Shown here: piece by piece, positions 22,222 through 37,180 of the stretch
How positions within the stretch are numbered: position 1 is the stretch's first letter
Layout of the letters: every line of letters starts with the position of its first letter
Origin: Mayamaea pseudoterrestris
Lineage: Eukaryota
NCBI GenBank assembly: GCA_027923505.1
Contig: BROI01000034.1
Span: forward strand, 62,001 to 126,000
DNA: 64,000 nucleotides
Reading direction: 5' to 3'
Program-made: the position numbers and the translations under genes
Notes under the pieces: generated by a model
What the model was told of the DNA's origin: nothing
Databases searched by the model: none
What the model saw: the letters and a program-made list of their open reading frames with translations, nothing else

Positions 22222-22332
22222 GGTCTTGCTTGGATTTGTGTGAAGTTGTGGCAGTCGACCGCCTTGGTGAGTAACGTTGCGATTCTTTAGTACCGCACCG
22301 ACAGCGTGACATTTCCCGCGCCGCGCTTGACC

Positions 22333-23835
22333 ATGAACTCGATGCCGTCGAGATTGCTTTCCATCGCTCCGTTCCAAATCAACGCTACCATGATGAGCTT
22401 GCGCGCACTTCTGCCAAGGCATCAGATAGGGTATCTTCAAAATGCTCTGTCTCCAATCGCCTTGAATGATTCGGTATTTTCATCTTATTCACCACAACCT
22501 TGTCATCGTCAGCAACAGCGTCGACGGATCGAAATTCTAATTGATCCCAAGAAGCAGCAACAAAAACAATCAAAAGGAAATAAGCAAAGTTCCAGGTCCA
22601 ATAAATTGTCACACATTTTCATTGATCGCACACGCGTTCGCGTCCGCGGCGGAGAGGGTGGCAAGGGTAGCCTATCGAGTAAACAGGTGTTTCGAGGTGC
22701 CTACAAGCTCAAGCCAGATGGCGGACATGGCGGAAGTGGAGGAAGCGTCATTATAGTTGCAGATCCCAAAGAGCAGTCACTAGGGAGATGGAGCCAGTTT
22801 CCACATGTGCAAGGTACGAAAGGGACGAATGGTGGGTCTCAGGATATGCAGGGGCGGACTGGCAAGAATTTGATATTGAGAGTACCTTGTGGAGTCGTTG
22901 TCAAGAGAGTACTGGACTACGATGAAGTTTGGGATGATGAGAAGCAGAGGGTTGTGGTACCCGAGAACGAGTATATCGAACGATTGGATCCAGAGCACGA
23001 GCCTCCGTTTGAGTGGTACGAAGAGCGCGACAACAAGGAAAGGACGGAGCGACAGACTGTCGTGCTTGCGGACCTCGACGAGCCGGGATCGCATGTGCTC
23101 GTGGCCAAAGGTGGCCGTGGTGGGAGCGGAACGTCGCTGTATGCTAGTCTACATGGTCCTAGACCTGACGACAGAGAGCTCATTGCAAATGCTCAGCCAC
23201 AACCTGGCGAGGAAGTATTCCTAGAACTTGAATTGAAAATGATTGCAGACTTGGGCCTGGTCGGCTTTCCAAATGCCGGAAAGAGTAGTCTTCTTCGAGC
23301 CATGAGTCGAGCAACACCAGAGGTAGCTCCGTATCCTTTCACGACGCTTCATCCGCTCATGGGCGTCATCGAATACAGTGATGGCTTCCGCGTCCGAGCT
23401 GCAGATATACCTGGTCTCGTAGCAGGAGCTTCGGTTGGGAAAGGCAAGGGGCATGATTTTTTGCGCCACATTGAACGAACCAAGGCACTCCTATATATCG
23501 TCGACGTGGCTGGAACGGACTATAGAGATCCACGAGAGGATTTAGCGGTATTGGTAAACGAATTGTCTTCGTACGGAGATGGCAGTCTCATGGAGCGGCG
23601 CACAATCGTGGTGGCGAATAAGGTTGACCTGCTTGCACAAGAAGATGTATTAATCGTCTTAAAAGACCTTGAAAAGGTTGCCAGAGATGCTGGTATTCTT
23701 GGGGATGATCAACCAATCTTTGCAATAAGTGCTGGTGTTACTGGAGAAGGTTTGGCCGACCTATCGCGAGCCATACGGAACGTCGTTGAAAGTGCAGACG
23801 ACGATAGGAGCATTGCCTTTGAAGCTACTTTATAA
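22333..23835 (+). CDS. Obg-family GTPase (organellar, MTG2/ObgE-like)
   Basis: Gly-rich Obg fold (FIDRTRVRVRGGEGGKG, PDGGHGGSGG), G1 GFPNAGKSS, G2 YPFTT, G3 DIPG, G4 NKVD. Start ATG is uncertain (22333-22393). Confidence 0.92.
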   Translation: MNSMPSRLLSIAPFQINATMMSLRALLPRHQIGYLQNALSPIALNDSVFSSYSPQPCHRQQQRRRIEILIDPKKQQQKQSKGNKQSSRSNKLSHIFIDRTRVRVRGGEGGKGSLSSKQVFRGAYKLKPDGGHGGSGGSVIIVADPKEQSLGRWSQFPHVQGTKGTNGGSQDMQGRTGKNLILRVPCGVVVKRVLDYDEVWDDEKQRVVVPENEYIERLDPEHEPPFEWYEERDNKERTERQTVVLADLDEPGSHVLVAKGGRGGSGTSLYASLHGPRPDDRELIANAQPQPGEEVFLELELKMIADLGLVGFPNAGKSSLLRAMSRATPEVAPYPFTTLHPLMGVIEYSDGFRVRAADIPGLVAGASVGKGKGHDFLRHIERTKALLYIVDVAGTDYRDPREDLAVLVNELSSYGDGSLMERRTIVVANKVDLLAQEDVLIVLKDLEKVARDAGILGDDQPIFAISAGVTGEGLADLSRAIRNVVESADDDRSIAFEATL

Positions 23836-23858: not shown

Positions 23859-26800
23859 TTATCCGGCCGTATCGGTGCTTGCTTCAGTGGGATAGTCCAA
23901 CACTTGTTGGCGATTTTTTAGACGGCAAAGCGCGGGTTTCATGGCCTTGCTTCCATGGAAGATGGTCGAGAACGATCCTACCATAATCAACTTGCATTTC
24001 GCTCTGGTTACTGCGACGTTCAGGCGCCGAAAGTCTTCTAATAAACGACCCACCTTCTTTTTCTCATTGCTGCGGACAAAAGAAATGATGATCACTGCCT
24101 TGTCCCGGCCTTGATAGCGATCGATGGTGCTGACTTCAAGACCTTTTGTCTTTGCCGTCGCAATCGAGGGGCACTTGCTGATGAAGTGAACCTGCAGTAT
24201 GTGGCTGTAAGAATGATGCTGTTTATTTATTACATGATTGGGTCGCTTTGCTTTGCTGCTTACCTGGGCCCGGAACGGACTAATGACGCCAACAGTGTCG
24301 GCTTGGACCCCGCAATCTACTAAACTGCCGACGATATTCCGGACAATTGTCGACTCTGTAGCGTTAACAGTTTTACCGGCACGCGTGTGTTCAAGAGGCG
24401 TAAAACTTTCTTCTATTGCGGAGTCAGTATTGATGAAAACGACAGGCATGGCGGGATTTAGGGTATCGCGCAGCCAACCTTGCGCCACGTTCTCAGGGTA
24501 ACCTGTTAGCACCAGCATCTGATTGCGAACATTATCATTCGCGCATTTGAGAGCGCCATTGTAAATTAAATCGTTACTCATCTGACAGATGTCTGCGTTC
24601 ATGCGATATTGAAAGCTTAATTTAGCGACCACGTCCGGATGGGCATCAGCGAGGAGCTTTAACATGGAAACACCGTAGCCTGGAGGACAAAATGCACGGA
24701 ATGTAAGAAGCGACGAATCTCATGCTTTAGCTATCCGCACACTCAGGCAAAAGCACTCACCTCCTTTCTCGGCAAGTTCACTGCTGACCAGCGGCGGAAG
24801 CTGCATGTGATCTCCCACAAGAACAAAAGTATCAGCAGACATTAGCGCTCCAATTATTGCTGGTTGACTTATTTGCCCAGCTTCGTCGACGATAACGACA
24901 TCGAATTGTTGACCCAAGAGCTGAGGCGACCGGGGAGCTGTCAAAACAGTGACTGCGACAATTTTAGCCGAATCAATGGTGCGTCGCACGAAAGTCGCCA
25001 GCTCCATACCATCGCCTTGTGTTAGGGCATTCTTTTCGATGTCTTCTGCTATGGTAGATGTCATCACTGGTAAGATTCCTTCGTGACAGTCTCCGGGACG
25101 ACCGACCCGAACCAACGGAGGCAATGGATGGCCAGAGTTTGTGGTGGCAACGCCCTTATCCATCAATTTCAACACAACATTGTCCACCGCCGCATTCGTA
25201 TATGATGTGACAAGAATTCGTTTGTCATGGGCCGCAAGCAGCCTGATCAGGAAAGTGATTGTACTTGTTTTGCCTGTGCGTGAAAACGTATAAAATTAAT
25301 GAAACTATAAAATATGTGTTAACATGGGAGTTACTCCGAGAAAACTTACCTGAACCTGGAAACCCTTGAATTAACGTATAGTCTGTGGCTGTGAACGCGG
25401 CTGTAATAGCCAACTGCTGGTCTGGATTCATTTCCGCATACTCTAATGCGAGATCCAAGAAGTCGCACCCAGGTACCAGCGGAGTGTCCGGCGGAGGCGT
25501 AAACAAGTCTTGCTGCAATTTATCATTGAAGCTAGGACGTCGAAGCCGAACGATTGCATCCCGGAGACGCTGCAGACGATTGCCAGCAGTATAATGGGAA
25601 GTTGTATCAGCGCTGAACAAATTAACAATGTTTTGACGCAAGGTTGATATTCCAGTGGCCACATGATCCTTGTCTATTCGGAAGCGAGTATCAGATTGTA
25701 CAGAAACAAGTTTATCCATCCTTTCCAAGTCAGCGACAGATCCCCGAACTGCTATACGGCTAGCGGAGATTGACTGTATTATGCCTCGAACAAGATGCAT
25801 TGGGTAACGGCGTGCCTTAAAATCCATTTTCCTGTCTTCGCCTGCGGATGTTGCTGTATCGCAACTTACAATCACGAGCGCACCAGGCTCAAGTCCGAAA
25901 TCTGTGAGTGGGACGTCCTGGCCTAGTGCAGACTTCCGGACGAATGAAACTGACACAGCACTCCGACCTTCGGGGTTTGTTGGTGGTATAGATAGTGAAA
26001 CGTGGGGATCATAATGAAGGTTTGCCAGGCAATTTGAAGTGCTTTGCCTTTCTGTCGAGTCGACAAGCCACGCTTGTGTGATAAGTGCGTGTTCGGCGTC
26101 TGCCTCCAGGTCTATGAGACGGTCAAAATGTTGGAAGTAAGCCAAATCGTCAGATTGCAGATGCCCAGTAAAAGCTTGCAGTAAATCTTTGTGAACACTA
26201 GGGCTGTCAAGTGGACCCAATTTTGTCGCGGCGGCCGCGTACAGCATGCATTCACGATTCATGTAGCACTTTTGACACTTGTGAGCATCAATCGGCAACT
26301 CTGGTAACGCAGCCACTGATGATCCCAGGAGCTCCACGCTATTTAAGAAGTTAAAGGTTAGAGACAAGTACAATTTTCAATTTCAAGTTGCATACATTCA
26401 ATTTGATGGAGGACACTTACTTCGCTCCGTTTGACGTATCAGGAGCATTTTGGAATGATATAGCATCTCCGCGTGGCCGAGCAGCACGGAGCGTTTCAAT
26501 AGCGACTTGGTTTCGCTGTCCCAACAGTGATTTTAAAACCGATAAACTCGGATTGGAAGACACAACACGAGCAGCATCATTGTTCATGTACAAGAGCATA
26601 CCATTTTCGCCGGCACTTTCAAATGACGTTGAGCTCGAGCAGTCGGCAACGAACCGCGAACGACGCATAATCATGTACAGCACCAATTGAGCCACATGTG
26701 CATCATTAGTCCGTTGTATGTGACCTGTCTTCAGTTCGACGCACATGGTGGAGACATCCGGACGTGAATTGGTTATATTTACGCTTTCAGTCGACGCCTT

Positions 26801-28633
26801 GACCAGCATATCGATGTTCCCCTTCAGACCAAGCTCTGGCGATACGACGGGCTCCTCAACCGCTTCTACTTCTAAGACCCGACATCGGATAGGAGCACTC
26901 AATCCGCAAGGCTCCAAAGCGGTAAGCTGAGCTGACTTTGACGATATCTGATTACCGAGGCATGTATATTGAGACGCGAACGCTTGTAGCTGCGGAACAA
27001 ATTTGATTAACTCCATTGCCGCCTCGCGAGGCGTAACTTTGCACGCCAGCAGTCCGTCTGCGTTTTCGCGAATGATACGCGAGATATGCCTTCTCGCAGA
27101 ATCAATGGCAAAATTGTTTTCCCTCATGCTGGCTTCGAATAACTCATGGCGCATGGTTCCGTACAGTGGGGCGATGGAGGTGAGTCCGGTTGATCCGAGC
27201 CTATTTTTGAGCACAGCGCGCCGCACGCAAGAAATACCCTCCGTGATAACTGTCGGAGTAAGGAGCATGTCGGGATGCACAATCAGTAAGTAATCGTCTT
27301 CAACAGTTCCAGGGCGCGAAATGGTGCGGAGAGTCAGCGGAAGCGCGTCGGCATCCGTCCCTAGCTGCCCCGATAGGGAGCAAATATGAATGTAGTCACC
27401 TTGCTCGATCGGAGTGAGATACCACTCGCCGCACAGATGAACGAGACCATCTGCCGCCCAACTCCGATCTTTTAAAGACTCGTAACGTCTTGCAAAGTCA
27501 TCCGCCTTGTGCATGGACTTATTGAGGGCGACTTCCTCAAGCATTTCTGTTCGCCATGCAGCGACTGTAAGCGTCTTTGTAAATGTGTGCTTGTCGTCAT
27601 GCACCCATAACACCCTGTATCTCGAATAAGTTAGGCATCCATCAACAGCATCAACTGACTGGCGAGCTTGATTTTGTTGGGTAGCTGGCAATATACCATC
27701 ACTTTGAGCGGCATGGACATTTTGTTGAGAAATTTGCTGTGTGATTGAATCGTCGAACGCAGCAAAATCAATATCATTTGGAAAGTCGCCAAACTCATCA
27801 TCGGTATGATTGACAACTTGTTTAGAGACTTTTTGGATAGCTGCAGGTGACTGACATTGTCCGAAGGAGGGTAGATTATGAATCGTTTCCGTTTGATTGA
27901 CTGCGTTTTCTTTCTGTGTCGCCTGCACCAAAGCGTCCAACGCGGCAAAATCATCCATACTTAAGTCAAGGTCGTCAAACTCATCGCTGATTGTCATCTT
28001 TTGTGCTACATGTGAATTGTCTCGTACGAGAGGGGATTTTGTTTCGACGGACGTGCGATCCGAGGAACTGACTTCTGCTGCTGCAGCTGCATTCGTATTC
28101 GAACCATCGTCTGGCGGAGTCTTCACCTGCTGCAGTAATGATGCAAACTCATTGTTTCGCGACTGAGGAGTCTTTGTTAAAGGCATTGGAGAAAGTTTTC
28201 TGTTGTTATCCAAAGGTTTTGCAGTTGCAGAATTGGTACTTTTTTCACCCACGACCATCTCTTGCAAAGCGCACTGTCGTCTCCGACGCTTTCTGCTAAT
28301 CAAATTATTGTTACTTTTCTTGTTTGCACCTGTCTGGTTGGTTTCATGAGCCGCAATAATGCGCGTGACTTCGGAGAGTGACGGTCGAGGTTTTCTCGTT
28401 GCAGCTCGTCGCTTGACAGTTTCGCCGCTACTGCTCGCCGATGACGTATTCGATGGTCCACTGGATGGAGTTTCGCGCGCTGCACCTGGCGTTCGAAAAG
28501 TGGGCGAGGCGAGTCTTCGAAGATCAACGCCGCAGCCTTCGTTCCAAACGACGCACTCGTCCTGCGAAAGCTGCGTTTCGCCGTTGAGGTTTTCGGGGTA
28601 TTCGTCTTGGTCACCAGTCGCATCAAAGTTCAT
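23859..28633 (-). CDS. DNA2: DNA2 nuclease/helicase, 5 exons (introns ~26339-26420, 25274-25349, 24680-24760, 24192-24263)
   Basis: CVRR..GTMRHELF..GLKGNID..ELKTG nuclease, KCQKCYMNREC Fe-S cysteines, spliced GFPGSG|KTS P-loop, VDEAGQ, VGDHMQLPP, QYRM, STIDRYQGRDK, RRLNVAVTRAK. GT..AG introns restore the frame. Confidence 0.93.
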
Positions 28634-28895
28634 AGTTCGTGTGAACGAATCGCAGTCAATGGAAGCGTTTCTTTTGACCGCGTACTGGGATGTAATGAAG
28701 CAATAGGGTTGACCAGCAGCATCGGCATCAGTTGATCGGCGGATGGTCCATGGTTGGCGAGAGGATCGGATCCGGATTTTGCGCAAGTCGTCTCGTTACT
28801 CAAATTGTGTCGTACTTGACGCCACTATGGGCGAAAGTGTGGGTGATGGAATGACCTTCATTCGTCGCGTTCATCGCACAATAACCAAAGTAACC

Positions 28896-31629
28896 ATGGT
28901 GGTTCCAATGGCGCCCAAGCGCAAGCAGGCAAGCCATGACGCAGCTGCCTCGGATCTAAAGGCTCGCATATTCCTTGGCGTCGCTTGTTTCTGGCCTTTT
29001 CTCATCTTGGCGCTCTTCGCCGCGTCGGCTCCACGAGTGGAAACGGAGCAATCCTTGGCCGCGCTATCGTCCGACGCCAAACAATTAAAGAGTAGCTTGC
29101 GCAATGTACTGGATCGAGTCGATGTATTAGGATACGGACCGACGCATCCGCGTGTGGCAGTCGTTGTGGTAGGCGATGATACGAATCAACTACTAAAGAC
29201 GGTTGAAAATGTCTTTTTGCACACTGATATGAATCGGATCTTTGTCGTCTGCGTTGTGGTGGAAGGAGCGGCGGAGAGTCCTCAATTAGTCAATCAATTC
29301 AGAAAGATAGATCAAGGTAGTACTCCGCATTGGCATGGTCTACGTCCGGATATTCACTCGGAGGAGCACGCGAACAAGAAGGAAGATTTAGACGACGATC
29401 CTCACGGATACAAGATGAAACTATTCTTTCACCCAGAAAAGCAAGGACTTGCGGAGAGCAGAAGTGAGGCAGTTCAGTTTGTTTCTATACTCAATAAACA
29501 TCACGAAAACGCTGGACTCAAGTCACCAAATGAGGACATTATCTTATTACTCTTGCAACAAGGAGTTCAAATCGAATCTACAAAGTGGATTGCACCCGTC
29601 ACGTCAGCACTCATTGTTCCTCCACCTTTACTAGGAGAAGCGGATGCAGAAGTGGCAATCAAAATGGCAAATGCTGTTGCGTTTAACACAGAGGGACCAG
29701 GAAGACGAACGTCGTTTGACACGACCTTTACACCACTCTTATCATCGCCGTCGACGGAGGAGCTCAATGCGTCTAACGGAGATTCATACCCGGCACCTGC
29801 CTTTAGCGGAGCTGCCATTGCCATGCGTCTTGATACTTTTGTCAATCTCCCGTCGCATGACACCTCACTGACGGAGGAATGGCCTGCCAATTTGGAGCTC
29901 ACCCTTAATTTGTGGCTTTGCGGCGATGGCATTGATGTCTTGAAAGATGTAAAGGCCACTACCGCTAGCCAAGTCATGTCAGCAGCACTTCCTCCGCAAT
30001 CAGCAGCTCGGTTCGCCGCCGCGTGGATGGATGGGGCCACGCAGAAACGGTTCTTTCATGCGTATCGTATTTCCTACCCAGAACTTACCTACTTGGAATG
30101 GGAAACACTTATGGGCAAGGCCAAACAAGCAGCGACATTTACCAAGGATTTGCCTAAAAAATGCCGAAGCTTTAAGTGGTTTGCAGAAACGATCAATCCC
30201 GACATTCGGGCCATCCTCGCAGAGTCTGAGGATGCCGAAAGCGAGGAGCGTTCGATGAAGGAAGAAGACGACGAACGAGAGGAGGAGGAGCAGGACTTGA
30301 GCGACGCTAAATCGGTAGACGAAAAAGCGGCAGGCAAAGAAGCATCGATGAACGATAAGGGTGATGATGAATTTAGCATTCCGGAACGAAAGGACGACGG
30401 GAAAAAGCCGTCCGAGCCGCTTTGTCCGAAATGTCTCGAGATTGTGCAAAAGGCAAAACCCATTGATATAAGTTTTGTTGATGTGTCTAACGGTCATAAG
30501 GAGCATCCTCATAAGGGTGCAACCGACGAGCATGGAAAGCTTGGATATATTCACGATGAAACGGCTCTTCGAAAGAACCCTCCGGCTCTAAATTACCCCG
30601 AGGCCAGCCTTCGCGAAGCGTGCCTAAAACGTGACAACAACTATAAAATGTTGAATGAAAGGGTGTATGTCGACCTCGAATATGACAAGAAGATGCAGGC
30701 ATCTGGCAAGCCGCGGCCTAAGATCTTTTGTTTTGTTTACACGATTGATTCAGGTCACTCAAAGATTCCGAATATTCGTGAAACTTGGGGGTGAGTGATG
30801 ATTTGGCATGGTTATGCTTTTATCGGGAAAGAGCGACGTTGACCAACATTATTCTTTTTCATTCTTTTCTTGCAGACCAAAGTGTGATGGCTTCATGGTT
30901 GCTTCCAATCTGACAGATCCTACGATTGGTGCTGTCAACATTGTCCACGACGGTCCCGAAACATACAATAACATTTGGCAGAAGGTTCGGAGCATGTGGA
31001 GCTACATTTATGATAATTACTACACATCATACGATTTTTTCCACATTGGAGGCGATGATTTGATGCTCATTGTGGAGAACTTACGCTACTACTTGGAGAG
31101 CGAGGAGATCCAGACGGCACAGAACGGAGGAATCTTTCTGCCAGACGGAACGGAGACGACCCAAGTTCCGCTCTTCCTCGGACGCCGATTCGCGTACCTT
31201 GGAGATCAGAACGATATATTCAATTCCGGAGGATCAGGTTACACTTTGAATAAAGCCGCTCTGAAAACACTTGTGGTGAACGGATTTCCCGAGTACTTTC
31301 CTCACGCAGTAACATTTTCAGAGGATACCATGGTAGCTCGAGTATACCGCCACTTTGGCGTCTACCCCTACGAGACGAAGGACAAGGACGGAGGCGAACG
31401 ATACATGCCATTCCTTCCTGGGCATCACTATGGCTATCGAATCCCCAAAAACACGAATGAAGACTGGTACGCCAAGTACTCAATCGATATCAAGGAAGGA
31501 CCAGAGCATTGTTCACCAAGAAGTATTGCGTTCCACTACGTGAAAGATAACGGCATGAAGAGGCTCTTTGCGCTGCTGTATCACCTTTGCCCACCAGACA
31601 CTCTGGATCCTCCCGCCAGTAAATCGTAA
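28896..31629 (+). CDS. Type II membrane glycosyltransferase: degenerate ppGalNAc-T (GT27)-like domain fused to a core-1 beta-1,3-galactosyltransferase (C1GALT1-like, GT31) domain; intron 30791-30875
   Basis: N-terminal TM helix. GT27-like motifs PAPAFSGAAIAM..NLELTLNLWLCG..RFAAAWMD..CRSFKWF. GT31 motifs KIFCFVYT..TWG|PKCD..NIWQKVR..GGDD..VENLRYYL..SGGSGY..ED..CS..IAFHYV. Confidence 0.85.
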
Positions 31630-33147
31630 TTGGGCGCAGGTAAATTACGACAAAGTCAACTTGGGTTATAATAGCTTTTACATGCTGCTGTTTTTTAAGT
31701 GACTGATACGTTACGTAGCTTGTCCAATTAAAGAGCGCAACACTCAGCTTCCCTTCAGAGATTCCGGATCGCTTCAAAGATGAGCACTTTTCCGCAGAGA
31801 AAGTTTTCGACGACTACAGTATAGGCTTCTGTGCGCAGGAGCCCCACTCCACCATTTGTTCCTTCCCTGACTTTCATTTTAATCTACTTCTTATCTTTGT
31901 CGTTCCATGTCGTCTTTTAGCGCCTGCCACATCGCGATTGTCCCAAGCGCCAAGTCGCTGCATGTAGTGCACCTCTTCGGTTTAATCGGGCTGCTTTTAC
32001 CTTTTCGCAAACATGAAAGGCTATAAATGTGAAGCCTTACCTTTCTCCGAGTCCGTCTGAAAGATTGAAGGCTCCGCGAAACAAATGATGGACCTTAAAG
32101 AACGTACTTAATCATCTTGATTTTCCTCTTGCTCCTTACTCCAAAGCTTGCGATACTGCTCGGGAGTATCTCCATCAAACACATATATCACTGTTCAATA
32201 GAAACAGTGCATAGAGGGTTAGACAAAATGTGGATCGTATCGTCACATTAGCGCCGAAAAACTAATACACGCATTGCCCGCACATCGACGCAAGTTGCAG
32301 CGCTTACTTTGCAAGACCGATACGCGAGCGAGCTCATTGACATCAATGCCATAGTTCCTTGGAGTAGAACACTAGCGATACATATATAGTTGTCTCGCTT
32401 GAGGAGATTAATGAGTACGGTAACTAAAATGTCGCAATTGACGCTGCGCTATTCGAACCGATCAGGGATGTCTTTCATCGCACCGCGACTAATCTGTCAC
32501 AGTGGTCGAATTTGGACCACGTACGTCGTAAGAGAGGAGAAAATGCGAACACGTCGCGGACACGAATTTCGGAAAGTGCGTATCTACCATTGCCCTTATC
32601 TTCCGACTTACGTAGCTGGCGCAGACTTCAAGCTGCTCTCTTATGTCCTGATGTACTCCTTGCCAATTGCTTCGCCAATTGATACGGAAGATCATCATGC
32701 TCCAGCTGTCAACGCTTGGAGTGTCACGCACTATCAGTGAAACTGTCATTTGGATATTGCCCCGTGTTGAGCCACGACAGCGATGTTTTAGTATCCCATA
32801 AAAAGTACTAATTTTTGCCGGCTGTCAAATTACCGCAACCGGGAGACGCCAGAATGACCTTCTCGGACATTTACCAGCCGCTGGCACCCCGCGATCCGTG
32901 GAGACTCCGTTTAGTCGACGACCAAGAATTCGGTATTCACTATTCTTCACGGTTCGCCGGTAAAGGGGCATATCACCGCGGAAGGGGTCGGAAGGGAAAA
33001 CGTCGGGCAGCGCGAATGCCGTCCAATGTCACCGTCCGGGTGGTCAGTACGCAAGGCAAACCGCACCTCCCGGGCGGCGCTAGTGCAAAACCACTTTCAC
33101 TTTCCTTGACGCTCTGTAGACTTTAATTGCATTAATTTGAATTGAAA

Positions 33148-35427
33148 ATGAATCAATCTAGAATAAGGTCACTAGAAGACTCGCAGAGGGATGATCGCAG
33201 TGTCAACCCGAGCAAGAGGATGCGCCTAGCGTCTCCTTGCGGGTCCGCTGCTGTAGCAAGCTGTTCCAGTTCAGCATGTTCTAATTCGCCTGATGAAATT
33301 GCTAATTTGAACGCCACTGGCATGAACATTCTACATTGCGACCCGTCCGAGGCAGAGCGCTGTTTCTCTCAAGCCTTGAGCCTTGGAAATAACAAATTTT
33401 CCGCCAAGCCTGCAGCGTCCAAAATGGGTGCTGCACCAGCGCTTGCACCAGCGGCTGCGAGCTCGCCACGACTCTCGTTTTGCGCCAAGAGCCCGGTCAA
33501 TACGCATAACGACAAGACGAAACTGCTTTATATTTACCAAAGACAAGAATACGATGAAGGAATGTACGCATACAGTGAAGCTCTTCCCATTGAAGAACAT
33601 CTAACCGATTCGGTGAGGTCTGCCACGCTCATGTACAATGTGGGTCAGACTCATGTTCGCCGCGCCAAGTACTTTGAAGCGAGAAAGTGGTTTGAACTTG
33701 CATTGGTTCGTCTCAAGCTTGATCCGACGAAGAACATGGCGATAACCAACATGTACTATGTCCGCGTCTTTCACAATCTCGGCCATTGCCTCTACCGGCT
33801 TGGAAAGAATGAGGATGCCATGCGGTGTTACCAAAAGGCACTCGCACAAGTGCAGCAAGCAAAGCTTGGTAGCTATCACGAAGCAGTCGCCAACAACTGC
33901 CTCGCCGTCTTGCTTTTTCACAACAATATTGACTCGGCCAAGGCGCTCGATCTCTTTCGTGAGGCGCTTGTTGAGTATCGCAAGCACCTTGGTAGTGATA
34001 GTCGCGAAGTCGCAACAGTCTTGAATAACATTGGACGGGTGCACTACTTAAAGTCCAACTACGATGAAGCTCTTGAAGTGTACGAGGAAGGACTCGCGAT
34101 TCGTCGCAAGATTCTAGGAACGGAGAGTATTGGTATGTGTTTCAACAGCATGGAGTGTCTTTGATCATTTTCTATCGTCGGTATGTGTCTCACCTTTGTA
34201 CGCTTGCTATCTCGTTTACTAGATGTCGCTGCAACTATTTGCAACACTGGACAATCCTACCACCAGCGGGGAGATCTATCTAAGGCAATGGAGATGTACA
34301 AGGAGTTTCTCGAGCTTGCTTCCACACTATTAGGCCCGAATCATCGTGACATTGCCGTCATTTACAAGTGCATGGCTGAAATTCACCATTCGCAGTCAGA
34401 GACAGAACTCGCCAAGACAATGTTTGAGAAGGCACTGGCCGCTGGTCAACAAGCTTTAGGGGCCTTCCATCCCGAACTCGCCTCGACTTTGAACAAGCTT
34501 GGGAATTTGCATTATGAAATGAACGACATGGACACCGCCCTCAAGTACTACATCGAAGGACTTCACGTTGAGCAAATGGTGCTAAGCCCTGATCATCCAC
34601 ACATCATAATAACGCTGTTAAACATTGCCCAGATTCACCGGCATCAAGGCAAGTACGCGGCAGCCTTGCTGAGATACGGCGAAGTCCGTGAACTACAACT
34701 CAAGTCCTTTGGTCCCAACAGCATTGCTGTTGCTACGACGCTGTCGAGCATGGGCTTGATGGAGTACCAGCTGAAGGCATACTCGGCTGCGTTTGATCTC
34801 TACCAACAAGCACTCCGCATCCAGCGAGATCATTATGGCAATGATGATCACTTGGATGTGGCTGCGTCGTTGAATTCGATCGGTTTGGTCCTGTTCAATC
34901 AGAGCGAGTACACGCTTGCCAAGCAGTGCTTCACTGACAGCCTACGCATTCGCCGAGAACAGCTCGGATCGAACCACCGTGACGTTGCCATCCTTTGGTA
35001 CAACATTGCTACCATCTATCTTGAAACCGGTGAAGATGATGTGGCAGTCAAGCTTTACAAGGAGACACTTCGCGTGGAGCGTCTTTCTCTTGGTGCCAAG
35101 CATCATGATGTTATACTTACGCTGCAGCACCTGGGTCTTGTCCATCAGCAACGAGGGGAGTTGGATGAAGCTCGTACCTACTTTTGCGAAGCTCTGGAGA
35201 TTGAACGAACCAAGAAGGACGAGTCGCGACTTGCGATCGGCAAGCTGCTGAATCTGATTGGCAACATTCATCTTCAACGAGCCAATGTGAAGGAAATGAT
35301 GGAATGTTACATTGAAGCATCCCGCATTTATGAAGCGATTTCAGATCAGGCGGAGAGCCTTGTCATTGCTGGCTACAACTTTTACGGCCTCAGCACTTTG
35401 CATCCACCTACTGCCGCAAGCGCTTAG
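33148..35427 (+). CDS. TPR-repeat protein (kinesin-light-chain-like 42-aa TPRs); intron 34133-34222
   Basis: Repeated ..LG..H.DVA..LN.IG..H...G....A...Y..AL.I units. The GTATGT..TAG intron joins ESI|DVA in frame. Confidence 0.88.
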
Positions 35428-35429
35428 GT

Positions 35430-35711
35430 TTAGCTTTAAAATTAATAGAAATACATTTACAAAACATGTACTGGAAAGTTGTACAATTGAATCGTCAAAA
35501 GCTAAGCGACTTTGACCGGTGGTCGCCGCCCATCGATCAGCCCGGCATCGTTATATTCATCCATCTTAGCTTTAAAATTAATAGAAACACATTTACAAAA
35601 CATGTACTGGAAAGCTGTACCTTTTATCGTCAAAAGCAAAGCGACTTTGGCTCAGCAGACCGGTGGTCACCGCCCATCGATCAGCCCGGCATCGTTATAT
35701 TCATCCATCTT
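35430..35711. repeat. Tandem duplication of a ~136-145 bp unit covering the shared 3' region of two convergent genes
   Basis: TTAGCTTTAAAATTAATAGAAA...CATCGTTATATTCATCCATCTT starts at 35430 and again at 35566, with a few substitutions and a small indel. Confidence 0.92.
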
Positions 35712-36939
35712 CAATAAAGCTTAATAACTCCTCTCGACGAAGCGCCTTCAACTCGGGGAGGAAGGTGCTTACCAATCCATCGTCTCCGGCTCCATTCAAC
35801 AGCGCTTCAATTCCAAACCGCGTCGCTTTGCTACGATGGTCCGAGACTCTGTCCTGTGGATAGTTGTACGTCCGAATGCGCTCACTCCGATCGCCACCGC
35901 CCATTAAACTACTCTTGAGGTTGCCTCGCTCTCGTTCTCGCTCCATCCGCTGCAGGTCACGCACCCTTGCCGTAATAAGCTTTAACGCCTTTTCCTTGTT
36001 CTTGTGCTGTGAGCGCTCGTCCTGGATGGACGCTTGGATTCCAGTTGGAATATGTGTGATGCGGACCGCACTGTCCGTGGTATTAATATGCTGTCCACCC
36101 GCTCCCGATGCCCGCATAGTTTCAAACTTGAGTTCCGACGGCGGAATGGCATTCTTGTCGTCAATGAGTTTCAAGGCAGGCAACACGCCGACGCTACAGG
36201 CTGAGGTATGAATTCGACTATCGTTGACCGGGACTCGTTGAACTCGGTGTACGCCACTTTCAAACTTGAAGGCTCCGAATGGACCAGTGACATGGTCGTC
36301 TAATATCGGCTTTGGCGTGCCCATGATGGACAGTGCAGCCTCCCGAATGCCTCCAATGTCCGTCTTGCTCTCACTCAGCATTTCCGTATTCCATCTCAAT
36401 GCCTTGGCAGTCTTGATGTAGCATTCGAGTATTTGAGCGGCAAAAAGCGAAGCTTCGTCTCCCCCTGTCCCGGCTCGAATTTCAATAATGGCGTCACTCT
36501 GAGTATCATCGTCATCGGATGGCAATATTGCATCAATCAATTTCTTGTCCAAGTCGTCTATTCGGCAAATAATTTCGTCTATTTCGCGCTTGCATTCTGC
36601 GAGCAGGTCGTTATCGTTTGCTTCAATGGCTTCCTTGGACAAATCCTGCATGGACGTTTCTTCCTCCACCAGCGCTTGTTTCTCTTGAACAAGTGACGCG
36701 ACTTGGGACAAGGAAGACAGTTCCTTGCCCAAAGCTTGTGACGATTTGTTGGAACTCTTTAGTTCTGCCATGACTACTGTGTGCCGTTCCATGATTTCAT
36801 TGACGCGTTGTTGGACAGCCTTTGACAAGAATGTCCGCCGACGAGACGACCACGCAATATCGTGCTGGATTGACACACATGTTGGCGTCAAAAATCGAGG
36901 TCTAGCCCTCAGAGCAACACGTTGACATTGGCCAAGCAT
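35701..36939 (-). CDS. Bacterial-type peptide chain release factor 1, organellar (probably mitochondrial)
   Basis: EIRAGTGGDEASLFA, KFESGVHRVQRVP, RASGAGGQHINTTDSAVR (GGQ), DRSERIRTYNYPQDRVSDHR; Arg-rich presequence from ATG 36939. Confidence 0.92.
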   Translation of the reverse strand: MLGQCQRVALRARPRFLTPTCVSIQHDIAWSSRRRTFLSKAVQQRVNEIMERHTVVMAELKSSNKSSQALGKELSSLSQVASLVQEKQALVEEETSMQDLSKEAIEANDNDLLAECKREIDEIICRIDDLDKKLIDAILPSDDDDTQSDAIIEIRAGTGGDEASLFAAQILECYIKTAKALRWNTEMLSESKTDIGGIREAALSIMGTPKPILDDHVTGPFGAFKFESGVHRVQRVPVNDSRIHTSACSVGVLPALKLIDDKNAIPPSELKFETMRASGAGGQHINTTDSAVRITHIPTGIQASIQDERSQHKNKEKALKLITARVRDLQRMERERERGNLKSSLMGGGDRSERIRTYNYPQDRVSDHRSKATRFGIEALLNGAGDDGLVSTFLPELKALRREELLSFIEDG

Positions 36940-37180
36940 GCTTAAACTATTTAAGCTGTATACAAGCTTGACTTTAAGCAATGGTTTGTTTAGAAGCAAT
37001 GATCAAGGACGCAATTGTTGGCCTTGCGCGAAGAAAAGATGAGGCACAAGTCGCATCGTTAATAGAACCCGTCGCATCGTTAATGACATGACCAAAACAC
37101 ACACGTCCGCATCATCCGCATCATTTTCTTTGTCCAAGAGACTCGACCGCAGCTTTACGACCGTGAAAATCATTCCAGCC

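Follow-up and report, generated by a model that had tools for sequence, protein, structure and literature searches.

Gene structure and transcript evidence

Positions 28896 to 31629 of the window, by which the whole 64,000-nucleotide stretch of Mayamaea pseudoterrestris DNA analysed is meant, hold a gene of two exons separated by one 85-nt GT..AG intron, on the forward (+) strand like all the features given below. Exon 1 (28896..30790) provides residues 1-632, of whose last codon it holds the first two bases, and was derived from the open frame and its translation, identity with the NCBI protein P0003 and spliced contigs; exon 2 (30876..31629), also covered by spliced contigs, provides residues 632-882 and the stop codon at 31627-31629. 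The spliced product, with ETWG joined to PKCDGF at the junction, has 882 amino acids and equals P0003 in every letter. In all four public runs, contigs were found which lack exactly the 85 nt of the intron (30791..30875, GTGAGT...TTGCAG), the gap ends being GT..AG; these runs belong to one study whose library kind is not on record, and the intron-less contigs were taken as spliced copies. On these grounds, the coordinates and the splice proposed in the original prediction were correct.

The N-terminal domain, the linker and the start of the GT31 domain lie in a single unbroken frame in the window. In run X2, record 9 (2,669 nt) covers 28898-30789 and 30875-31651, that is, the whole reading frame, and since one intron-less contig carries this frame from end to end, both halves belong to one spliced molecule. 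The contigs start at 28898, two bases past the annotated ATG. Both halves are also present in complete MMETSP transcripts of relatives, as established by sequence for P0085 and P0265 and judged by length and annotation for P0052 and P0069. Within the coding sequence, 17 of the 22 contig variants are synonymous. No functional link to the fusion gene was found among its neighbours, which encode a Dna2 helicase-nuclease, an Obg GTPase, TPR proteins and an organellar-type release factor.

A signal-anchor or transmembrane helix lies at about residues 25-44 (28968..29027), visible as the hydrophobic run IFLGVACFWPFLILALFAASA and as a helix over residues 16-44 in both structure models. The fusion protein would have a type II membrane topology and is presumably located in the Golgi.

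The N-terminal domain

Residues ~83-445 (29142..30230) form a GT27-type, i.e. ppGalNAc-transferase-like, GT-A domain without the canonical catalytic residues, according to the structure model (pLDDT mostly >90), hhalign, Foldseek and VIA-align. When the N-terminal half was compared with the PDB by phmmer, 16 of the 18 sequences at E<=1 were ppGalNAc-transferases (best 6.3e-4), and the family profile matched 14 ppGalNAc-transferases at 2.5e-6 to 9.4e-3. The hhalign comparison of the domain profile with 17 GT27-type proteins gave a probability of 99.7% (E 2.5e-25, 301 columns), all 30 Foldseek matches listed among ranks 1-50 were ppGalNAc-transferases (E 7.7e-16 to 5e-12), and VIA-align, run over 48,161 chains, yielded Z scores of 25.0 for GalNAc-T1 (rmsd 3.0, 284 aligned, model residues 80-442) and 22.6 for TgGalNAc-T3, the next GT-A fold standing at 15.3. 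The likeness to GT27 is far beyond chance. Moreover, the motifs follow the GT27 order (strand, DxH site and W, then FD, TP..GG, W..NLE, W.C.G, R.A..WMD and C..F.W), and the invariant cysteines C342 and C423 align with two invariant cysteines of the GT27 set, which in that family form a disulfide. The motifs of the nucleotide side are partly retained (R189, the V-x-D/E-G strand, FD and R372/W377/M378). A family-specific His-rich insertion at residues ~137-172 (29304..29411), with invariant H145, H147, H154 and H170, has no counterpart in the GT27 profile aligned by hhalign and shows a lower pLDDT than the rest of the domain; in the same alignment, the helix preceding the DxH strand is longer than in GT27.

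Neither Glycos_transf_2 nor Glyco_transf_7C was matched by the Pfam scan of the fusion protein and, in scans of the exon products, the full protein and three orthologues, neither half was recognised, DUF5523, S_100 and Borrelia_P83 appearing below threshold only. The domain profile matches lectin-bearing and lectin-less GT27-type relatives equally well, and the sequence comparison, which held no GT60 reference sequence or structure, points to an ancestry in the GT27/GT60 clade of polypeptide HexNAc-transferases. A homologue search with P0224, a lectin-less GT27-type protist protein, gave 8 matches.

The metal-binding site is where the domain departs from its relatives. The GT27 D-x-H position is occupied by Q221-Q222-G223 (29556..29564), at the end of strand 215-221, the hhalign columns setting TFLDSH on LLLLQQG and D-S-H on Q-Q-G, just as had been claimed. 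WGGENLE is replaced by W329-P-A-N-L-E334 (29880..29897), one residue shorter than the Gal/GalNAc-T motif WGGENxE, the GT27 glutamate aligning with Ala331 in both the family profile and hhalign, and the third metal ligand, the His of C-S-x-V-G-H, aligns with Thr in the His-free stretch K-D-V-K-A-T-T. Read from these alignments, neither the WGGENLE glutamate nor any of the three Mn ligands has been kept; with the catalytic machinery of the first step gone, the domain is therefore no longer a canonical transferase. Furthermore, Ricin_B_lectin was absent from P0001 and P0003 in the Pfam scans and present in 17 of 22 remote GT27-type matches: on the C-terminal side, where GT27 has its ricin B-type lectin domain, the linker, the pre-domain and the GT31 domain follow.

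In 18 of 18 aligned N-terminal domains, the old D-x-H site consists of two variable residues (Q/E/A/R/H/K and Q/G/S/A/P) and a Gly, and no D-x-H was found either in these or in 26 further family representatives. Many of the latter carry R/K-x-D at this position (e.g. TFLRPDS and FLRCDA), the cluster of Thalassiosira oceanica THAOC_36759 being among them. This R/K-x-D of many non-pennate members, together with the conserved His-rich insertion, may leave room for a non-canonical active site.

The description of the first half as a degenerate domain of GT27 type, devoid of metal ligands and ricin lectin, was thus borne out by hhalign, VIA-align and Pfam, and every motif that had been quoted for the two halves (LLLLQQG, WPANLE, NLWLCGDG, AAWMD, CRSFKWF, GGDD, SGGSGY, SED and FHY) was found. 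It had been conceded that this half might prove unlike GT27, or that the halves might be transcribed separately; instead, it is GT27-like by profile and by structure, and both halves lie on one spliced transcript unit. The idea of two consecutive glycosylation steps in one chain holds with regard to ancestry but not to catalysis, that of the first step appearing lost in every member examined.

Linker and pre-domain

The N-terminal domain is followed by an acidic, unconserved linker of variable length, residues 446-499 (30231..30392), which is predicted to be disordered (pLDDT 31-49) and shows 0-23% identity between orthologues. Next comes a conserved pre-domain, residues 500-608 (30393..30719), delimited by a local HMM and by pLDDT, which belongs to no recognised family and always precedes the GT31 domain. 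Its pLDDT is 55-80 when modelled without the GT31 domain and 80-92 when modelled with it, and in the models it appears to pack on that domain. The full-length model (pTM 0.46) gives the two domains no confident mutual placement, and a complex prediction of residues 83-445 against residues 500-882, run without controls or family alignments, scored 0.00, a value that speaks neither for nor against contact.

The C-terminal GT31 domain

Residues 609-878 (30720..31614, with the intron 30791-30875 inside) form a C1GalT1-like GT31 domain, in agreement with the original prediction. In fact, phmmer matched this half to the Drosophila C1GalT1 structure 7Q4I with an E value of 8.4e-31, Foldseek retrieved 7q4i_B (E 1.3e-13, TM 0.76 on the target, 27% identity) and, with the family profile, C1GalT1 was the closest solved GT31 (E 6.9e-32, versus 8.9e-4 for B3GLCT).

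Individual residues were read from the phmmer alignment with the Drosophila enzyme (DmC1GalT1), in which D181 and D183 bind Mn2+, D255 is the base, H324 is a metal ligand, E150, K158 and D182 contact UDP, R152 contacts peptide and pyrophosphate, Y218 is hydrogen-bonded to the axial OH4 of GalNAc and S220 contacts the acetamide (PMC9065035). Both the base, D782 in the xED motif S780-E781-D782 (31318..31326), and the Mn-binding C-terminal His, H852 in F851-H852-Y853 (31531..31539), are shared, as are the UDP contacts (E660, K668 and D692 for E150, K158 and D182) and D693 (D183), and the acceptor contacts S220, W300, Y304 and Y325 have identical equivalents in S749, W829, Y833 and Y853. In contrast, the DxD motif (Asp181-x-Asp183) has become G-D-D (G690-G691-D692-D693, 31048..31059), its first Asp being replaced by G691 and the second and third Asp kept; R152 is changed to Y662, Y218 to F747 with loss of the hydroxyl, and the vicinal Cys-Cys to His-Cys. 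DmC1GalT1 Y213 aligns with L740, a Tyr lying one residue before. H-x-G-G-D-D occurs in all 57 stored proteins matching the pattern, the G-D-D variant being invariant in the family, and FSED/FAED and FHY are found in 48 and 47 stored proteins, respectively. As judged by these alignments, the GT31 domain is largely intact but not fully canonical: of the intact-looking enzyme announced beforehand, the base, the C-terminal His and most GalNAc contacts are there, but the first Asp of the DxD motif is Gly.

Conservation and distribution of the family

With the local HMM, the pre-domain was detected after the N-terminal domain in 28 of 34 family representatives of at least 450 amino acids, and the GT31 domain as well in 26. 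Six have neither pre-domain nor GT31 domain; two of them end inside the N-terminal domain and four (P0152, P0157, P0158 and P0161) 19-35 residues past it, the latter being either independent proteins or gene calls truncated at an intron. The three-module architecture is conserved in pennate and centric diatoms, Thalassiosira oceanica being the sole named organism outside the pennates in the ten family clusters looked up. Identity to relatives amounts to 24-51% in the N-terminal domain, 0-23% in the linker and 43-78% in the GT31 domain. The N-terminal domain has about 40 invariant columns, mostly positions of core motifs derived from GT27, with no obvious new surface patch. Because of this identity compared with that of the linker, the invariant columns and the 17 synonymous variants out of 22, the domain can be regarded as still constrained and, from sequence comparison, is under purifying selection.

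In the databases, family entries are named 'hypothetical protein' or 'C1GALT1', and the N-terminal domain is unannotated in all the entries examined. In the literature searched, neither this diatom family nor any fusion of GT27-like and GT31 domains was found described, the sole passing mention being, in the available text of one article, a 'C1GALT1' differentially expressed in Fragilaria crotonensis (PMC9732472); a match for Asterionellopsis dealt with MGDG synthase and has no bearing on the family.

Comparison with known systems

In the mucin-type pathway, best known in animals, GT27 enzymes make GalNAc-O-Ser/Thr, which C1GALT1 extends. With GT27 members (GalNAc-T1/T2 and Toxoplasma GalNAc-T3), the diatom protein shares a GT-A fold of ~360 residues, the motif order and the type II anchor, whereas it has Q-Q-G for D-x-H, Ala for the Glu of WGxE, no VGH His, no ricin B lectin, a His-rich insertion of ~35 residues and a fused GT31 domain. 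Compared with C1GalT1, it adds upstream a pre-domain of ~110 amino acids and the dead GT27-like domain.

In B3GLCT, the nearest analogue, an extra GT-A domain is, according to the available text of one study, inactive and no longer able to bind metal or nucleotide, but indispensable for binding of the acceptor substrate (PMC13597200). In both proteins, one chain combines a GT31 domain with a retained GT-A domain on its N-terminal side which is devoid of metal and nucleotide ligands. Nevertheless, the extra domain of B3GLCT is a duplicate of its own GT31 domain, tightly packed and forming a cleft, while that of the diatom protein comes from a different family (the GT27/GT60 clade, of the preceding pathway step) and is held on a disordered acidic linker. 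Since the models give no confident placement and the disordered linker is variable, a fixed cleft like that of B3GLCT is not indicated.

Cosmc, a dead glycosyltransferase without DxD which is dedicated to core 1 synthase and required by vertebrate C1GalT1, shows that a C1GalT1 paralogue lacking DxD can be non-catalytic; invertebrate C1GalT1 requires no chaperone (PMC9065035). Unlike the diatom domain, Cosmc is a separate ER chaperone of GT31 descent, restricted to higher animals, and neither fused nor GT27-like.

As for protists, the available text of a review states that they, diatoms included, use lectin-less GT60 pp-alpha-GlcNAc-transferases instead of GT27, which among protists is confined to apicomplexans, and that GlcNAc is usually the first sugar of their mucin-type glycans (PMC8724618). 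These GT60 enzymes are GT27 relatives reported in diatom genomes, and the diatom N-terminal domain is likewise lectin-less, GT60 being a plausible source of it. With diatoms using GT60 according to that text, the ancestral pathway may therefore have begun with GlcNAc and not with GalNAc.

Proposed explanation and alternatives

The preferred explanation, to which a probability of about 0.6 is given, is that the protein is a working beta-1,3-galactosyltransferase in which the relic of an initiating enzyme has been put to new use for recognition or as a scaffold. One gene would encode a membrane protein of type II, presumably resident in the Golgi, whose luminal part has three conserved modules: a descendant of a polypeptide HexNAc-transferase (GT27/GT60) which would have kept its fold and core motifs and lost catalysis; the pre-domain of ~110 residues, apparently packed on the GT31 domain; and the C1GalT1-type GT31 domain, expected to be the sole active site, an inverting beta-1,3-galactosyltransferase with HexNAc-alpha-O-Ser/Thr as its probable acceptor. 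The dead domain would serve the active one through the flexible acidic tether, in acceptor recognition, in positioning or as a scaffold, most likely much as the extra domain of B3GLCT does, by analogy. The earlier suggestion of adhesive or mucin-like proteins as targets is conjectural.

That the whole results from a gene-model artefact, two adjacent genes being wrongly merged, has a negligible probability: a low-complexity linker does separate two halves to which Pfam is blind, but the single frame, the one spliced contig spanning both and the same module order in many diatoms contradict it. It is very unlikely, too, that the N-terminal domain has remained enzymatically active, working through a non-canonical, metal-independent or differently liganded site, so that the protein would be truly bifunctional and make a disaccharide O-glycan. 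Many non-pennate members have their R/K-x-D exactly at the D-x-H position, and some metal-independent GT-A enzymes work with a basic side chain where the metal would sit; the conserved histidines of the insertion and the remaining nucleotide-side motifs also speak for it. However, the pennate site (Q/E/A/K/H/R-x-G), variable in its first two positions, looks relaxed and not re-tuned, the WGxE glutamate is Ala and the VGH His absent throughout, and the GT31 domain has evolved markedly more slowly. A related proposal, speculative and quite improbable, is that an 'initiate-and-extend' O-glycan synthase, with a HexNAc-transferase and a core-1-type galactosyltransferase in a single chain, was passed down to the diatoms, and that some of its first domains (those of centrics with R/K-x-D, and relatives) may still work, Mn2+-free or with other ligands, the pennate domain having become a reader of (glyco)peptides by which the galactosyltransferase is directed to certain secreted or cell-wall proteins.

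It is unlikely, although less so, that the N-terminal domain has no contact with the substrate and acts within the molecule in folding, stability, oligomerisation or Golgi retention of the GT31 domain, as a built-in counterpart of Cosmc. The dependence of vertebrate C1GalT1 on such a dead glycosyltransferase (PMC9065035), the long flexible linker and the conservation mostly of inherited core motifs, not of an obvious new surface patch, agree with this role; the separate ER location and GT31 descent of Cosmc, the chaperone-free activity of invertebrate C1GalT1 (PMC9065035) and the ~40 residues invariant from centrics to pennates, hardly to be expected of a mere spacer, argue against it. A more serious, if still doubtful, possibility is that the GT31 domain has a function other than core-1 (Gal-beta1,3-GalNAc) synthesis and uses another acceptor, such as GlcNAc-alpha-O-Ser/Thr made by GT60 or a polysaccharide, or another donor; this concerns the product only and is compatible with the preferred explanation. 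The protist pattern given in the available text of the review, with GlcNAc-initiated glycans, GT60 genes in diatoms and GT27 in apicomplexans alone (PMC8724618), favours it, as do the Phe in place of the Y218 which binds the axial OH4 of GalNAc, the Tyr in place of R152 and the mere 27% identity to DmC1GalT1 in the Foldseek alignment. On the other side, equivalents of S220, D255, W300, Y304 and Y325 are all retained, and among solved GT31 structures none is nearly as close as C1GalT1.

Significance

To our knowledge, hardly anything has been charted of protein O-glycosylation in diatoms, although heavy glycosylation is a feature of their adhesives, mucilage and silica-associated proteins. The fusion family offers a concrete, conserved entry point, a C1GalT1-type enzyme found from centric to pennate diatoms. 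As the preferred explanation has it, this is a natural case of pathway fusion in which one catalytic domain would have decayed into a non-catalytic module, extending the B3GLCT principle to a heterologous pair of glycosyltransferase families. The fossil initiating-enzyme domain within the fusion argues for an initiate-and-extend pathway of the mucin kind in the diatom ancestor and, should an inherited initiate-and-extend synthase prove true, a pathway resembling the mucin type, with a fused enzyme that has no precedent, would exist in a major non-animal lineage.

Results

One gene with two exons occupies 28896-31629 on the forward strand: exon 1 (28896-30790) reads open from end to end in one frame, an 85-nt intron follows (30791-30875, with GTGAGT at its start and TTGCAG at its end), and exon 2 (30876-31629) carries the frame on across the junction ...IRETWG/PKCDGF..., all on the same strand. 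Splicing yields an 882-aa protein with the same sequence as P0003, a pennate diatom protein in the database. The splice, for which the original prediction had sought confirmation, was found in assembled contigs from four public runs of a single study (library kind not on record), since in all four a contig leaves out precisely this 85-base stretch, which has GT..AG ends. Moreover, the whole reading frame lies on one 2,669-nt contig from run X2 (28898-30789 joined to 30875-31651), and therefore separate transcription of the two halves is contradicted, within the reach of assembled contigs. The annotated start codon at 28896 and the transcript start are provisional: contigs of three runs start at 28898, two bases past the annotated ATG, run contigs give no cover upstream in the bin 28734-28850, and in the same frame Met next occurs at residue 5 (28908); contigs cannot show ends. 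Short contigs of runs X1 and X3 come in pairs over 30009-30287; the two members of a pair differ at 6-7 sites that lie close together and are mostly synonymous, a pattern more in keeping with two alleles or strains than with errors. Exon 1 is uninterrupted, unlike the N-domain of several relatives, which in tblastn falls into two parts that lie 87-300 nt from each other and in different frames (metagenome loci L011-L013, L018, L019, L022, L024 and L025); intron positions therefore differ among diatom lineages.

As regards the surroundings, a Dna2-type nuclease-helicase gene in several ORFs (23859-28795, reverse strand; Dna2 domain 26417-28795 and AAA_12 helicase domain 23859-24719, both reverse) is transcribed divergently from the glycosyltransferase gene. 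An Obg-family GTPase (22291-23835, forward), two adjacent TPR-repeat ORFs (33136-35427, forward) and a bacterial-type peptide chain release factor with PCRF and RF-1 domains (35701-37002, reverse), presumably organelle-targeted, were also found.

A short N-terminal tail precedes a hydrophobic helix at about residues 25-44 (16-44 in both models). Residues ~83-445, with pLDDT mostly above 90 in a model built with 79 relatives, have the fold of a ppGalNAc-T catalytic domain, and the GT27-like N-terminal half originally proposed is identified by five independent comparisons (phmmer, family profile, Foldseek, VIA-align and profile-profile). In the single-sequence phmmer search of PDB sequences, the 18 matches with E<=1 comprised 16 ppGalNAc-Ts (best 6.3e-4) and two hits to a ribosomal protein (E 0.47), and the family profile matched 14 ppGalNAc-Ts (2.5e-6 to 9.4e-3). 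Among the Foldseek matches listed (30 rows, ranks 1-50), all were ppGalNAc-Ts, with E-values of 7.7e-16 to 5e-12 over about 370-400 columns at 14-18% identity. Against 48,161 representative chains, VIA-align placed mouse GalNAc-T1 (Z 25.0, rmsd 3.0 Å, 284 residues, model residues 80-442) and Toxoplasma GalNAc-T3 (Z 22.6) ahead of the next fold, GlfT2 (15.3). In a search of 1.84 billion representatives, a profile made from 18 N-domains of the window and of metagenome loci (A2) retrieved, outside its own family, proteins with Pfam Glycos_transf_2 and Glyco_transf_7C, additionally with Ricin_B_lectin in 17 of the 22 Pfam-scanned remote matches; those bearing names were animal GALNTs. Compared profile to profile with an alignment of 17 of these remote GT27-type matches (A4), A2 gave a probability of 99.7% and E 2.5e-25, the 301 columns covering almost all of the domain.

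The catalytic residues of this fold have been lost. The hhalign columns bear out the earlier reading of LLLLQQG at the expected metal site, since GT27 T-F-L-D-S-H aligns with L-L-L-L-Q-Q-G, so that D-x-H corresponds to Q221-Q222-G223. Likewise, WPANLE stands in place of WGGENLE, the motif being one residue shorter and the WGxENxE Glu aligning with Ala331, while the C-S-x-V-G-H stretch aligns with K-D-V-K-A-T-T, without His. In GalNAc-T2, the D-x-H, the VGH His and the WGxENxE Glu supply the three Mn2+ ligands and a donor-sugar contact. As also predicted, no lectin domain was found in Pfam scans of the protein. Over the 18 aligned N-domains, the old DxH varies freely at its first two positions (Q/E/A/R/H/K, then Q/G/S/A/P) and ends in Gly in all, and D-x-H is absent from 26 further, more distant family representatives too; its loss is therefore old and family-wide. 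Many of these 26, including the cluster of Thalassiosira oceanica THAOC_36759 and complete 966-aa MMETSP transcripts, have R/K-x-D there (TFLRPDS, FLRCDA), and the pennates hold the more degenerate state of the old metal site.

The GT27 core is kept, namely R189, W231, F274-D275, P301/G305, N338-L-W-L-C342, R372/W377/M378 and C423-R-x-F-x-W428, and there are two family-specific additions. The first is a His-rich insertion without GT27 counterpart (P-H-W-H-G...H...H, residues ~137-172, window 29304-29411), with H145, H147, H154 and H170 invariant in pennates and a likewise His-rich equivalent in the Thalassiosira-type transcript P0265; this insertion might bind metal or serve as an interaction loop. 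The second, L-D-R-V-D-x-x-G-Y-G-P-T-H-P-R, is highly conserved just before the first strand; its D-R-V-D-x-x-G-Y-G-P-T-H-P-R part (residues 73-86, window 29112-29153) is (nearly) invariant across the family, has pLDDT <50 in both models and is a candidate interaction motif.

A linker (residues 446-499; acidic, disordered with pLDDT 31-49, unconserved) leads to a conserved pre-domain (residues 500-608) that matches no recognised family, with P505, P508, P538, H539, D544, G547, Y551, C576 and D580 among its invariant residues. The pLDDT of the pre-domain is about 55-80 when GT31 is left out of the model but about 80-92 when the full length is modelled, which suggests that the pre-domain packs on the GT31 domain; the full-length model (pTM 0.46) gives no confident domain arrangement.

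For residues 609-878, the E-value to Drosophila C1GalT1 (7Q4I) is 8.4e-31, and the full-length model matches C1GalT1 in Foldseek (E 1.3e-13, TM 0.76 on target, 27% identity), the next solved GT31, B3GLCT, reaching only 8.9e-4 with the family profile. When the residue roles given for C1GalT1 in PMC9065035 are read onto the alignment with 7Q4I (C1GalT1 = P0003 numbering), the uridine and ribose residues (E150=E660, K158=K668, D182=D692), the Mn2+ residues (D183=D693, H324=H852), the catalytic base of the xED motif (D255=D782) and the GalNAc and peptide contacts S220=S749, W300=W829, Y304=Y833 and Y325=Y853 are kept. In the same alignment, D181 is replaced by G691, so that DxD becomes G-D-D, R152 by Y662 and Y218 by F747, and Y213 lies opposite L740. 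The pattern H-x-G-G-D-D occurs in 57 of the 57 stored proteins that it matched (FSED/FAED in 48, FHY in 47), so that G-D-D is fixed throughout the family and does not reflect the decay of one gene. In many GT-A enzymes the metal is held by one acid of DxD. The domain is probably active, and the description "intact-looking" holds for the base, the C-terminal His and most GalNAc contacts, with a caveat for the DxD.

Identity to 14 full-length relatives is 24-51% for the N-domain, 0-23% for the linker, 29-64% for the pre-domain and 43-78% for the GT31 domain. Between window and run contigs, 17 of 22 single-base differences in the CDS are synonymous (9 synonymous against 3 non-synonymous for residues 85-445). 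The N-domain is under constraint, less so than the catalytic GT31 domain, and this fits a binding or structural role.

The full architecture occurs in Mayamaea, Nitzschia inconspicua, Seminavis robusta, Epithemia clementina, Cylindrotheca fusiformis, Nitzschia sp. Nitz4, Bacillariaceae MAGs, the JGI 'Psemu1' model and MMETSP transcripts marked complete, to which a cluster look-up added Thalassiosira oceanica. The pre-domain follows the N-domain in 28 of 34 family representatives of at least 450 aa (26 of the 34 also having the GT31 start or whole), two end within the N-domain, and four ORFs of 608-675 aa (P0152, P0157, P0158 and P0161) stop 19-35 residues past it, without a GT31 part. These four are divergent: they have an N-terminal anchor, their N-domain contains long low-complexity insertions, and T-F-L-R-P-D-S occupies the former DxH position. 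They are possibly stand-alone proteins, or else gene calls that stopped at an intron. Among metagenome entries, many of 620-700 aa consist of exon 1 alone, called as far as the intron.

Discussion

Each half comes from a known superfamily, and databases already contain the protein and its relatives, labelled 'hypothetical protein' or 'glycoprotein-N-acetylgalactosamine 3-beta-galactosyltransferase', with the N-domain named in none. In the open-access literature, no description was found of the N-domain identity, of its catalytic decay or of the fusion of a GT27/GT60-type fossil with a C1GalT1-type domain, a fusion conserved across diatoms. We class the protein among the two-domain GT-A enzymes of which one domain is inactive.

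The closest precedent for a retained inactive extra GT-A domain is B3GLCT, whose extra domain binds neither UDP nor Mn2+ and yet is essential to bind the acceptor (PMC13597200). There, however, the extra domain is a GT31 duplicate forming a rigid cleft, whereas that of the diatom protein stems from the family type responsible for the step before and hangs on a flexible linker. Regarding the acceptor sugar, a review (PMC8724618) states that protists including diatoms start mucin-type glycans with GlcNAc, via lectin-less GT60 enzymes, GT27 being missing from protists other than apicomplexans; the diatom N-domain likewise has no lectin domain. According to PMC9065035, Y218 of C1GalT1 touches the axial OH4 of GalNAc, and we speculate that its change to Phe might be compatible with a GlcNAc acceptor.

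Most likely, this is a Golgi type II protein whose GT31 domain would be the only active site, adding beta1,3-Gal to HexNAc-alpha-O-Ser/Thr, while the fossil initiating-enzyme domain, on its flexible acidic tether, would help in locating, holding or presenting the acceptor protein or, alternatively, would stabilise or organise the enzyme.
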